Assembly: GCF_054482525.1 (NCBI RefSeq) | Contig: NZ_CM137006.1 | Length of the DNA: 64,000 nt | Strand: one strand, 5' to 3' | Part shown: piece after piece, positions 30,856 to 31,890 of the stretch | Layout of the letters: each line of letters opens with the position of its first letter | How positions within the stretch are numbered: the first letter of the stretch is position 1 | Made by a program: the position numbers and the translations under genes | The notes under the pieces: generated by a model | What the model saw: the letters and a program-made list of their open reading frames with translations, nothing else | What the model was told of the DNA's origin: nothing | The model's database searches: none

Positions 30856-30905
30856 TTCAAAATTCGACGGATTAATGATATTTGTCTGATTAATAATCAG
30901 ACCTG

Positions 30906-30946
30906 ATTAATGTTGGTGTATTTATTACACCAGCATTAATTTTCTT
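30906..30946 (+). terminator. Rho-independent terminator of ykgM-ykgO
   Basis: 15-bp stem ATTAATGTTGGTGTA / TACACCAGCATTAAT followed by TTTCTT. Confidence 0.65.
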
Positions 30947-31890
30947 GGGGATGTATCTTCCTGTTCATTTAAGGTCAACTGCCTGACGTTTCTCTCCGAA
31001 TATTCCATTATATTAATGTTGACTTGTTAACCAGGTGCGCCCTGTATGCTGGCATCAACTCTCTTTTAGACTGAACACGCCACTCAGTTTCCTCCCTTTG
31101 CGACGCAGCCTGCATTTACACTCAAACGGTTAAGATGATAAATGTGGTAAATCTGTTGGTACTGACATAAAAACGTTTACGTCACAGGAACGGCCTGATC
31201 CACCGGTAACCCCATCGCCGACGTTCGAGTGCCAGTTAGAGTAACGCGCACAGATGACTGAATGCAGTGCCCTGGCAAAGAGGCCATCGTTCCTGTGACA
31301 ACTGGCAGTCTTCGTTTAACTTCACTTAATTTGGCTCTTAGGGGGCTTACCGGACAGATGACGTACTTACACCTGTTTAATTTTTCATCACTTATTGGGA
31401 TGAACACCCATAACCATTTTGTGCGGCATGTTAATCCATTAAAACACCTTACTGATTGGCAAATCATCTTTAATTATGACTCATGATAGTTTTATATTCT
31501 ATTTCTTATCATTTAAACTTGTTTTTTTACTAGTCCATCACACAACACATTAAGACTATTCCTAACACCTCAGGGCAAAGTTCCTGGCTAATATAAAATG
31601 CAAGTAAGAATTGAACGTTATATTGCCAATAACCTTATGAAACTGAATGTCTTTTTCTTCTTATCAAAAAAGCAATATTTTCATTTTTTGTAAATATTGA
31701 CTTAACCATGGAATTCCTTTTCTGTTCACATATTGACACTCATCAGGAAAAAAACATAAATTTAAACCTAATCGAAATAATTAAAACTTAATCTCGTTTA
31801 ACCTATATTGATATGTGCTACGTATCTTATTTACTTCCGATTTACTAAAGAAACTGAATGTACCTGTAAAAATTACAGGTTTGGAAAGTA

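Follow-up and report, generated by a model that had tools for sequence, protein, structure and literature searches.

The ykgO-ecpR intergenic region of an Escherichia coli PCN033-type chromosome is a composite non-coding junction of a predicted terminator, an IS3-family relic and the ecp (mat) regulatory region

Genomic context and composition of the ykgO-ecpR junction

The ykgO gene ends at position 30855 of the 64,000-nucleotide stretch of DNA analysed here (hereafter the window), and the region beyond it leads to ecpR and then ecpABCDE, the gene order annotated by PGAP directly after the gap in E. coli PCN033. Interval 30856-31890 was 100% identical to the corresponding region of PCN033 (NZ_CP006632.1). 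When measured to the K-12-style GTG start of ecpR at 31891 the gap is 1035 bp long, and since the ecpR start is here taken as the ATG at 31939 it extends over 30856-31938, or 1083 bp. In a 50-kb section of the PCN033 chromosome it ranked first in length among 43 intergenic gaps, the runner-up being 877 bp, which agrees with the first-pass annotation of this DNA in calling it unusually long. That annotation had also described the region as non-coding, and this held; no intact annotated gene lies within 30856-31890, every open reading frame was found to be broken or variable among strains, and a conserved gene filling most of the interval was looked for without success.

The GC content of the whole interval was 36.5%, relative to 48.7% for the window, though this average conceals two dissimilar halves. 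The 526 bp proximal to ecpR (31413-31938) had a GC content of 29.7%, included a 300-bp stretch (at 31591) with the joint-lowest GC content within the 64 kb, and carried 2.85 A/T tracts per 100 bp compared with 1.16 window-wide, a 2.5-fold enrichment. The distal 557 bp had a GC content of 42.9%, with a core of 49.5% inside it. The earlier description of the interval as AT-rich is therefore accurate for the proximal half but not for the distal half. The features that were located are listed in Table 1.

Table 1. Features of the ykgO-ecpR junction, in window coordinates
Feature	Coordinates	Strand	Basis
ykgMO operon 3' end: two hairpins and U-tract	30856..30947	+	RNA fold, inverted repeat I2
ykgL reading frame, frameshifted pseudogene	30890..31115	-	alignment to K-12 b0295, PGAP
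IS3-family (ISEhe4-like) transposase orfB relic, ~nt 400-580 of orfAB (HTH_21 region)	31079..31260	-	blastn, tblastn, Pfam
96-aa ORF, not a gene	31177..31467	-	strain comparison, polymorphism, family searches
74-aa ORF, antisense to the 96-aa ORF, not a gene	31262..31486	+	strain comparison, family searches
Upstream regulatory region, 29% GC, blocks shared with Klebsiella and Pantoea	31414..31769		alignment
Distal conserved block CCATTTTGTGCGGCATGTTAATCCATTAAAA, ~350 bp upstream of the ecp start site	31414..31443		alignment
Candidate EcpR(MatA)/RcsB operator: RcsAB-like TAAGACTATTCCTA (31551-31564) and two TTCCT boxes	31551..31585	+	consensus match, conservation
Conserved block CAATAACCTTATGAAACTGAATGTCTTTT between operator and promoter, candidate IHF site	31627..31655		alignment
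ecp core promoter: -35 TTGACA 31733-31738, 18-bp spacer with A7 run, -10 TAAATT 31757-31762	31733..31762	+	sigma-70 scan
ecpR 5' untranslated region, Shine-Dalgarno GAGG 31924-31927, start ATG 31939	31770..31938	+	cross-genus conservation

A predicted ykgMO terminator and an IS3-family relic

RNA folding of the sequence immediately following ykgO revealed a stable structure (-31.8 kcal/mol, z = -5.96) that was equalled by none of 200 shuffled sequences. Hairpin 1 spans 30853-30899, whilst hairpin 2 is formed by a 15-bp stem (ATTAATGTTGGTGTA / TACACCAGCATTAAT) at 30906-30940, directly followed by a UUUUCUU tract at 30941-30947. Inverted repeat I2 was 93% complementary, and its lone mismatch corresponds on the plus strand to a G-U wobble in PCN033; K-12 has a U-A pair at this position. 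A simple terminator scan did not flag the hairpin, which was recovered by RNA folding. An outgroup genome, L004, has kept the hairpin and lost the U-tract. Judged from its sequence and predicted fold, this segment is probably the intrinsic (Rho-independent) terminator of ykgMO.

Further into the gap, the 49.5% GC core was found to consist of a 182-bp remnant of an IS3-family transposase gene with broken frames. In blastn searches against plasmids (7.3 Gb), it matched 22 records at 69-74% identity (best E = 4e-15), 12 of which had an IS3-family or mobile-element transposase annotated at the match, the remainder having no listed feature. Local blastn gave 74% identity over 160 nt (E = 5e-21), tblastn aligned the relic with OrfB residues 55-104, and the Pfam HTH_21 model returned weak matches (E = 0.005 and 0.054). 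The similarity is to the 5' region of orfB in elements named ISEhe4-like by PGAP on Pantoea and Erwinia plasmids, and the translated relic retains the motif ALERRRxGYRxI...V..KR.YHIYHLN.LSV. Unlike a full IS3-family element of ~1.2-1.3 kb, the relic lacks orfA, the catalytic (DDE) domain and terminal inverted repeats: tblastn detected no similarity to orfA or to downstream orfB even at E <= 10, and the inverted-repeat search detected no terminal repeats flanking it. It is a fossil and not a mobile element, and we infer that it is the scar of the rearrangement that brought ecp beside ykgMO. Full-length plasmid matches were rejected as mobile copies, having proved to be F-prime plasmids or chromosomes filed as plasmids, and a search of a phage collection with the distal half returned no match.

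The putative ecp (mat) operator, the promoter and the ecpR start codon

Seven blocks of the junction were found to be conserved from Escherichia through Klebsiella to Pantoea, and these include the RcsAB-like box, both TTCCT boxes, the -35 and -10 elements and the Shine-Dalgarno sequence. The contig search yielded eight loci, none of them from typical E. coli, E. albertii or E. fergusonii, and consequently L004, which was deposited as E. coli yet is ~82% identical across the locus, served as the only Escherichia outgroup. In Klebsiella, ecpR has an upstream gap of ~0.9 kb and a different neighbour gene, and homology with E. coli ends at ~31411. Within E. coli, two allele classes with ~92.5% and ~98% identity to the window were distinguished, presumably the 'mat promoter polymorphism' that is reportedly tied to phylogenetic group (Lehti 2013); PCN033 carries the non-K-12 allele, with a run of A7 rather than A8 in the promoter spacer. 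Divergence between these classes amounted to 2.5% in the conserved blocks, as against 8.5% elsewhere in the interval (Fisher p = 0.006). Diversifying selection was considered and rejected, as the overall difference of 7.6% matches the 6.7% at four-fold sites of the flanking genes, and is thus attributable to lineage divergence.

The block most distant from ecpR (31414-31443) is the same in both E. coli allele classes and is kept in L004 and three Klebsiella species. The two TTCCT boxes (31559-31563 and 31581-31585) lie 17 bp apart at approximately -211 to -185 relative to the start site, form the sole TTCCT-N17-TTCCT site in the interval (31559-31585), and both fall within blocks conserved through Klebsiella and Pantoea. 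EcpR reportedly acts through two TTCCT boxes located ~200 bp upstream of the promoter, and we take the pair found here to be the EcpR boxes published in Martinez-Santos 2012. The overlapping TAAGACTATTCCTA matched the RcsAB box consensus (TaAGaatatTCctA; PMC3950696) at 13 of 14 positions, the top match in 64 kb. Between operator and promoter, block 31627-31655 was kept in 8/8 sequences, Pantoea included. The exact IHF consensus WATCAANNNNTTR had no match anywhere in the interval; the block departs from it by two mismatches on the minus strand and is, by inference from these letters, a candidate IHF site.

The top sigma-70-like site in the promoter scan was TTGACA-N18-TAAATT (10/12). Its TTGACAC sequence at -35 was invariant in 8/8 genomes from three genera, and its -10 region was also conserved. 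In the literature (PMC10038029), the ecp promoter lies 121 bp ahead of the start codon, and EcpR activates it together with IHF. The site found by the scan puts the inferred start site at ~31770, 121 nt before the GTG at 31891, in agreement with the published location. An alternative, TTAAAA-N17-TATATT (31781-31809), is compatible with transcription starting 121 nt ahead of the ATG at 31939, and was set aside solely because it is not conserved in Klebsiella, outside Escherichia. The first-pass annotation had called the entire ~1 kb a leader, which is a loose usage, given that from the published start site the transcribed leader measures only ~0.12-0.17 kb (121-169 nt).

That annotation also invoked H-NS silencing and EcpR autoregulation, both of which agree with the literature. 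At this locus H-NS acts as a repressor of matA, and MatA-RcsB as an activator of mat (PMC5651002, PMC7917084). In K-12, the gap between ecpR and ykgL appears among the 'promoter islands' of Panyukov and Ozoline (2013, PMC3661553), and every ChIP data set considered there showed H-NS bound to it. The composition of the proximal half, with 29.7% GC and a 2.5-fold excess of A/T tracts, is consistent with H-NS binding as a sequence proxy. The 398-bp island converts to approximately 31523-31920 of the window, in the AT-rich proximal half, and spans only about one third of the interval, the distal half lying outside it. The high-affinity H-NS motif TCGATAAATT (10 bp, up to 2 mismatches) had no site in the interval and was not enriched in the window, which makes it uninformative here.

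The ATG at 31939 as the start of ecpR was agreed upon by PGAP, by orthologues of 179-180 aa in other genera and by NCBIfam NF047921, an equivalog model whose alignment covers residues 1-179 of the 180 residues of EcpR with 338 bits against a cut-off of 300. The frame from the GTG at 31891, a codon that sits inside the 5' untranslated region, meets a stop in Klebsiella and L004, and the block containing the Shine-Dalgarno sequence is conserved across genera. The 5' untranslated region had a fold z-score of -2.3. The K-12 matA/ecpR start (GTG, 196 aa) probably lies 48 nt too far upstream.

Reading frames, and possible RNA structure or regulatory function, in the distal half

The K-12 gene ykgL (b0295) encodes 75 aa and is convergent with ykgO. 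The first-pass annotation mentioned that K-12 has it annotated nearby, and a comparison of coordinates and protein did place its frame on the minus strand adjoining ykgO; it is, however, neither of the two ORFs that were named as examples, and it is frameshifted here. Two 1-bp deletions relative to K-12 leave ORFs of 35 aa (31008-31115) and 27 aa (30925-31008), and PGAP labels ykgL 'frameshifted' in PCN033 and related strains. An alternative is that ykgL encodes a genuine small protein in E. coli and was lost only recently from PCN033 and related strains, in which case a decayed gene, and not never-coding DNA, would make up the distal interval. In accordance with this, none of the five K-12-like strains sampled interrupts the 75-aa frame, which carries the PGAP name 'protein YkgL', has database clusters with hundreds of members, and lies in a locus transcribed in K-12 and EcN (PMC12288877, PMC12279244), where convergent overlap of the ykgL and ykgO transcripts has been described (PMC12288877) and 'ykgL' reads increase alongside ykgMO under zinc limitation (PMC12279244). 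That RNA-seq signal may, however, derive from the 3' end of ykgMO, which overlaps the ykgL annotation, and an open frame throughout the K-12-like clade is expected without selection since these strains are closely related. The database search recovered homologues exclusively within Escherichia, where the frame varies among lineages (at least five variants: 75, 63-64, 84, 35 and 11 aa), and neither Pfam nor NCBIfam had a model matching YkgL. At the start codon, TUM12355 has ACG and L004 has ATA, and identity to L004 reaches only 42-44% along the larger part of the ORF. In addition, the start codon (31113-31115) falls within the IS3 relic, the first 12 codons being a frame-shifted piece of a transposase gene, and the final ~17 codons read the ykgMO terminator hairpin in reverse complement. 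With these observations weighed, a genuine ykgL gene that was recently inactivated here appears quite unlikely. The frame resembles the orphan or 'proto-gene' ORFs (K-12 y-genes without homologues) in its shortness, one-genus range, lineage-variable frame and absence of a family match, and differs from them in having a traceable origin, with an IS relic at its 5' end and terminator antisense at its 3' end. Whether it might instead be a young frame at the point of gene birth, having acquired its start when ACG became ATG within a dead IS3 transposase remnant and its 3' end from the strand antisense to the terminator, and being kept open and translated in K-12-like lineages, is a proposal that we regard as improbable.

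The two central ORFs named in the first-pass annotation, at 31262-31486 and 31177-31467, are present as described, and neither behaves as a lineage-specific protein of PCN033-, O157- or B2-type strains, an identity we consider exceedingly unlikely. The 96-aa ORF is open in 6/6 and the 74-aa ORF in 5/6 of the PCN033-like strains sampled, and many GenBank submitters have called them 'hypothetical protein', with at least 1000 contigs carrying one 96-aa variant and 366 the exact 74-aa sequence. Against this, RefSeq PGAP annotates neither, searches of all ORFs in the gap against Pfam and NCBIfam returned no match, and at most one of the two could easily be real as they are mutually antisense. Both are disrupted elsewhere: K-12-like strains retain only 46 or 19 aa of the longer, the shorter is truncated to 32 aa in three of five such strains and its start codon is missing from two of these five, EC5654 carries a nonsense allele of the latter, and each has several stops in L004. 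The polymorphism is neutral-looking, with 4 synonymous and 11 non-synonymous changes in the 96-aa ORF, part of which is the IS3 relic read out of frame, and 4 versus 7 in the 74-aa ORF, the nonsense allele included. A structured non-coding RNA in the distal half, for instance an sRNA or a leader controlling ykgL or ecp in cis, is very improbable. A perfect 12-bp inverted repeat (31181-31192 / 31288-31299) and two further long-range repeats in the GC-rich core hinted at such an RNA, as did the convergent transcription of ykgL and ykgO cited above, but Rfam covariance models matched nothing on either strand of 29500-33000 even at E <= 1, and the folding of 31116-31420 was ordinary (z of approximately -0.8 on each strand). 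The perfect repeat was dismissed as a chance occurrence, being specific to PCN033 with both arms altered without compensation in L004.

It remains to consider that the entire 1.1 kb is regulatory DNA, either an extended platform for H-NS nucleation and bridging or an insulator between ykgMO and ecp. Although the neighbouring genes differ, Escherichia and Klebsiella both retain an upstream gap of ~0.9-1.1 kb, H-NS filaments commonly spread, and the conserved block at 31414-31443 indicates regulation reaching to 350 bp or more upstream of the start site. Nevertheless, the distal half has a GC content of 43-50%, which makes it a poor H-NS substrate, has no homology beyond Escherichia and L004, and diverges by 7.5-11%, at or above the neutral level given by four-fold sites (6.7%); one third of it is the IS relic. 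Regulation by the whole gap is hence unlikely, and the distal half would seem to have no regulatory role, although its 60-77% conservation in L004 means that a lineage-specific function may be possible. The suggestion of a large regulatory region thus applies to the proximal ~0.5 kb, which is AT-rich and conserved across genera, and not to the distal ~0.55 kb of terminator, IS3-family relic and unconstrained spacer.

Discussion

The ykgO-ecpR gap is a composite non-coding junction with an independently regulated operon on either side, and not a single AT-rich leader. We are highly confident in an account in which a terminator is followed by decayed IS and ykgL DNA, then by an H-NS-silenced, EcpR-activated ecp promoter region and its 5' untranslated region. 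The Zur-controlled ykgMO operon would end at the predicted intrinsic terminator on the left of the interval, and the next ~0.45 kb would be decaying DNA that holds the 182-bp IS3-family fragment and the Escherichia-only ykgL frame, the latter beginning within the relic and finishing on the strand opposite the terminator. This would be succeeded by ~0.36 kb of AT-rich ecp (mat) upstream regulatory DNA and a 5' untranslated region of 121-169 nt. For the regulatory steps, H-NS binding, the action of EcpR, RcsB and IHF, and the start site are taken from the literature. H-NS would coat the AT-rich proximal half and silence the sigma-70 promoter, whose start site lies at ~31770; EcpR/MatA and RcsB would bind the RcsAB-like box and the TTCCT pair ~200 bp upstream, and IHF may bend the intervening DNA such that H-NS is overcome, resulting in positive autoregulation of ecpR-ecpABCDE.

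The proximal half corresponds to the E. coli ecp/mat regulatory region already known (Martinez-Santos et al. 2012, J Bacteriol 194:5020; Lehti et al. 2012, 2013; Pannen et al. 2016), with the same locus and elements upstream of ecpR-ecpABCDE: AT-rich DNA, an RcsB-type half-site for MatA-RcsB, and a promoter 121 nt before the annotated start. Nothing essential differs, and the regulatory reading is right for this half and already published.

The window therefore carries an ordinary copy of a studied, H-NS-silenced and self-activated fimbrial promoter, and the significance of these results is mostly one of annotation hygiene: there is no support for treating ykgL, or either of the 'hypothetical protein' ORFs often called here, as a gene. 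Small additions are the IS relic and the derivation of ykgL from an IS3 fragment and terminator antisense. Should the improbable case of ykgL gene birth nonetheless be true, a transcript colliding with the zinc-regulated ykgMO mRNA would represent a lineage-specific, zinc-linked micro-protein or antisense regulator. For the ecp operon itself, the conserved block ~350 bp upstream of the start site could guide dissection of the promoter.

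Anatomy of the ykgO-ecpR interval

The gap between ykgO and ecpR contains no genes; it carries a probable terminator at its ykgO (distal) end and a conserved operator, promoter and Shine-Dalgarno sequence at its ecpR (proximal) end. The chromosome of E. coli PCN033 (NZ_CP006632.1) was 100% identical to 30856-31890, and among 5426 complete E. coli genomes, 4959 carried a homologue of the interval (at least 80% coverage). The RefSeq gene order was ykgR, ykgM, ykgO, an opposite-strand frameshifted 'hypothetical protein' pseudogene and ecpR-ecpABCDE. The equivalent gap of K-12 MG1655 carries a single annotated gene, ykgL (b0295, 75 aa), convergent with ykgO, whose annotation begins 34 bp from the ykgO stop.

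With ykgO ending at 30855 and the K-12 matA/ecpR start at GTG 31891, the first-pass annotation, which described an AT-rich regulatory leader of about 1 kb at 30856-31890, had exact boundaries under the K-12 annotation. However, EcpR orthologues of full length run to 179-180 aa in Enterobacter, Klebsiella and Pantoea, residues 1-179 of the 180 in EcpR align with the NCBIfam equivalog NF047921, the Shine-Dalgarno GAGG (31924-31927) upstream of ATG 31939 is kept across genera, and the frame extension from the GTG meets a stop in Klebsiella and in L004, a divergent Escherichia genome (NZ_JAATUR010000022.1). Together with the PGAP choice, these observations argue that ATG 31939 is the real start, and that the K-12 start is probably placed 48 nt too far upstream. 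This start gives a non-coding gap of 1083 bp. Among the 43 gaps in 50 kb of the PCN033 chromosome it is the longest, and the second-longest in the neighbourhood is the 877 bp betT-pdeL gap (~1425-2301). The description as AT-rich was borne out in the proximal 526 bp (29.7% GC), where the 300 bp at 31591 share the window-wide minimum, but not in the distal 557 bp (42.9% GC), which include a 182-bp core at 49.5%. Several 300-bp stretches within ~54541-55560 match the ecp promoter region in low GC content (26-31%).

Features of the ykgO-ecpR interval
Feature	Position	Strand	Remarks
Hairpin 1, ykgMO 3' end	30853-30899	+	RNA fold
Hairpin 2, ykgMO 3' end	30902-30949	+	15-bp stem 30906-30940, then UUUUCUU
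96-aa ORF	31177-31467	-	Open in 6/6 PCN033-like strains
74-aa ORF	31262-31486	+	Open in 5/6 PCN033-like strains
Conserved block	31414-31443		CCATTTTGTGCGGCATGTTAATCCATTA / CCATTTTGTGCGGCATGTTAATCCATTAAAA; by-eye reading of alignment, then checked; below block threshold
Conserved block	31488-31500		Eight-sequence alignment
Conserved block	31549-31568		TTAAGAcTATTCCTAAC; eight-sequence alignment
Conserved block	31574-31586		GGCAAAGTTCCTG; eight-sequence alignment
Conserved block	31627-31655		Eight-sequence alignment
Conserved block	31726-31745		TTGACAC invariant; eight-sequence alignment
Conserved block	31748-31759		By-eye extension to 31762 for -10 hexamer
Conserved block	31915-31932		SD region; eight-sequence alignment
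ecpR K-12 start	GTG 31891	+	196 aa annotation
ecpR start	ATG 31939	+	180 aa; PGAP choice

Coding potential and sequence divergence

None of the ORFs in the gap was conserved. YkgL homologues were limited to Escherichia and came in numerous forms incompatible with one another: a K-12 type of 75 aa, an O157 type of 63-64 aa (at least 1000 contigs), duplications of 84 and 103 aa, and shorter truncations. When the alleles of eleven E. coli strains and the outgroup L004 were compared in detail, ykgL was 75 aa in the five K-12-like alleles (one with ACG for ATG) and 63 aa in O157; PCN033 and three others had a 35-aa form, and Z226-7 one of 11 aa. L004 carries ATA at the start, and its ykgL body shares 42-44% DNA identity. 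The 96-aa and 74-aa ORFs, left unassigned in the first-pass annotation with ykgL in mind, are neither of them ykgL, which is the minus-strand frame starting at 31113-31115. These two ORFs are mutually antisense and overlapping, are disrupted in K-12-like strains by a 1-bp indel near 31342, premature stops or start loss, and contain several stops each in L004. Within the PCN033-like class, polymorphisms were 4 synonymous versus 11 non-synonymous in the 96-aa ORF, and 4 versus 7, including a nonsense allele, in the 74-aa ORF. As searches of Pfam, NCBIfam and Rfam also returned no match for the gap, and no conserved, expressed gene filling it was found, its initial description as non-coding stands.

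The E. coli alleles fell into two classes, ~98% and ~92.5% identical to the window, which we take to be the promoter polymorphism that Lehti et al. 2013 reportedly tied to phylogenetic group. Divergence between K-12 and PCN033 was 7.6% across the gap, similar to the 6.7% (24/356) at four-fold degenerate sites of ykgM, ykgO, ecpR, ecpA and ecpB, hence most of the gap drifts neutrally. The cross-genus blocks diverged by 2.5% versus 8.5% for the rest of the gap (Fisher p = 0.006), and the fastest-diverging segment was 31261-31413 (11.1%).

The probable ykgMO terminator and the origin of ykgL

The two hairpins at the ykgMO 3' end folded with -31.8 kcal/mol (z = -5.96). Read on the plus strand, the lone mismatch of the stem becomes a G-U wobble in PCN033, and K-12 has a U-A pair there, a pairing that fits a terminator of ykgMO rather than of ykgL. 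K-12 ykgL ends in ~17 codons that form the reverse complement of this terminator, and its annotation shares at least 55 nt with the ykgMO 3' end. 'ykgL' has been listed with ykgM and ykgO as the three genes most induced under zinc limitation (PMC12279244), and ykgL-ykgO has been described as a convergent overlapping pair (PMC12288877); the ykgMO 3' end would most simply be the source of both reports.

A sensitive blastn search of 30941-31480 against 72,556 plasmids recovered the expected F-prime and chromosome copies, along with 22 records of 69-74% identity over 31079-31260 (E-values to 4e-15). An IS3-family or mobile-element transposase was annotated under the match in 12 of these, from Erwinia, Pantoea, Klebsiella, Enterobacter and E. 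coli plasmids, the remainder having no listed feature. The matched stretch is thus the fossil of an insertion sequence, an IS3-family relic. Direct alignment of an IS3 transposase with the relic gave 74% over 160 nt. The minus-strand translation reads LALERRRWGYRWIRPFL*RKRFYVSTNR and, after a frameshift, QQIYHIYHLNRLSVNAGCVAKG, the OrfB counterpart being ELALERRRFGYRCIWQLLWREGLCVNHKRVYRIYHLNGLSVKRRRRRKG. Pfam HTH_21, the domain expected at the corresponding position of IS3 transposases, matched the relic weakly (E = 0.005 and 0.054). The relic must be old, since it is also found in K-12 and L004.

The ykgL start codon lies inside the relic, where direct alignment pairs AAACGCAG of the IS with AAATGCAG of E. 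coli, and past a 1-nt gap the ykgL frame is that of OrfB (TEW vs TER). Given this start and the terminator-derived last codons, ykgL runs from dead transposon DNA into terminator antisense. A conserved function for YkgL is thus unlikely, judging by this origin and the instability of the frame.

The conserved ecp control region

An EcpR-alignment scan of species-representative genomes retrieved L004, six Klebsiella loci and one Pantoea locus. L004, though deposited as E. coli, shares just ~82% identity with complete E. coli genomes over ykgM-ecpA (EcpA 97% and EcpR 87% identical) and is probably a separate Escherichia lineage; its ecpR lies downstream of ykgM-ykgO, as in the window. In L004, a LysR-family gene is found upstream of ykgM. 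In the window this position is held by ykgR (29999-30100), encoding a 33-aa small membrane protein, and a second, partial ykgR pseudogene (PGAP; ~49324-49392, record 339035-339103) adjoins a LysR-family regulator gene ~19 kb away, which hints at an old duplication or rearrangement. The Klebsiella ecp loci also have an upstream gap of ~0.9 kb (L005-L009, ~3054-3980), but a divergent ABC-transporter ATPase gene, not ykgMO, lies on its other side. On the K. oxytoca contig, a second, more distant ecpR-like gene (L011, 58% identity) is found ~7.5 kb farther downstream.

E. coli and Klebsiella showed DNA homology only over ~31411-31763, and conserved blocks were drawn from an eight-sequence alignment. 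The most distal block lies ~350 bp ahead of the ecp start site. It does not differ between the two E. coli allele classes, is kept in L004 and three Klebsiella species, and contains a TTAAT-CC-ATTAA palindrome; to our knowledge, no factor has been assigned to it. The blocks at 31549-31568 and 31574-31586 hold a TTCCT-N17-TTCCT pair (31559-31585), the first TTCCT lying within TAAGACTATTCCTA, a 13/14 match, the best in the window, to the RcsAB box consensus TaAGaatatTCctA given in PMC3950696. Such an arrangement fits the MatA-RcsB heterodimer reported to activate mat, the ecp operon (PMC5651002, PMC7917084).

The top sigma-70-like site, TTGACA-N18-TAAATT (31733-31762), puts the predicted ecp start near 31770. 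GTG 31891 is exactly 121 nt farther on, the distance reported for the ecp promoter in PMC10038029, citing Martinez-Santos 2012. The K-12 counterpart includes a 398-bp 'promoter island', H-NS-bound in all ChIP data sets (PMC3661553), which our own coordinate conversion places at ~31523-31920. The spacer homopolymer at 31748-31754 is A7 in nine of the eleven E. coli alleles, PCN033 included, and of the same length in other genera. An A8 run in K-12 MG1655 and strain 1303 lengthens the -35/-10 spacer by 1 bp and might be one reason why ecp expression is weak in K-12. In the ecpR 5'UTR (fold z-score -2.3), UUAAUCUCGU (31788-31797) can pair with AUGAGGUUAA (31922-31931), covering the Shine-Dalgarno sequence. 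The pairing is kept without covariation in L004, Klebsiella being not alignable there, and might be relevant to the temperature-dependent, post-transcriptional control that has been reported for mat.

Implications for the ecp locus

Under the published model, H-NS would coat the AT-rich half and silence the promoter; EcpR, the product of the operon's first gene, would bind the TTCCT boxes ~200 bp upstream together with RcsB, and IHF would aid it against H-NS, so that a positive feedback loop results (PMC10038029, PMC5651002, PMC7917084). The block at 31627-31655 may be the IHF site. The initial reading of the whole interval as regulatory thus holds for the proximal half, with its conserved operator, promoter and Shine-Dalgarno sequence; the distal half, occupied by the ykgMO terminator and the IS3 relic, is probably spacer. 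The relic may be the trace of a rearrangement in the Escherichia lineage that brought ecp, together with its own control region of ~0.5 kb, next to ykgMO.

What the window carries is an ordinary copy of the known ecp/mat control region. Minor additions are the IS3 relic with the origin it implies for ykgL, evidence for a K-12 matA start 48 nt too far upstream, the A7/A8 spacer length polymorphism and the conserved block at ~-350; they leave the specialist's picture of this region unchanged.
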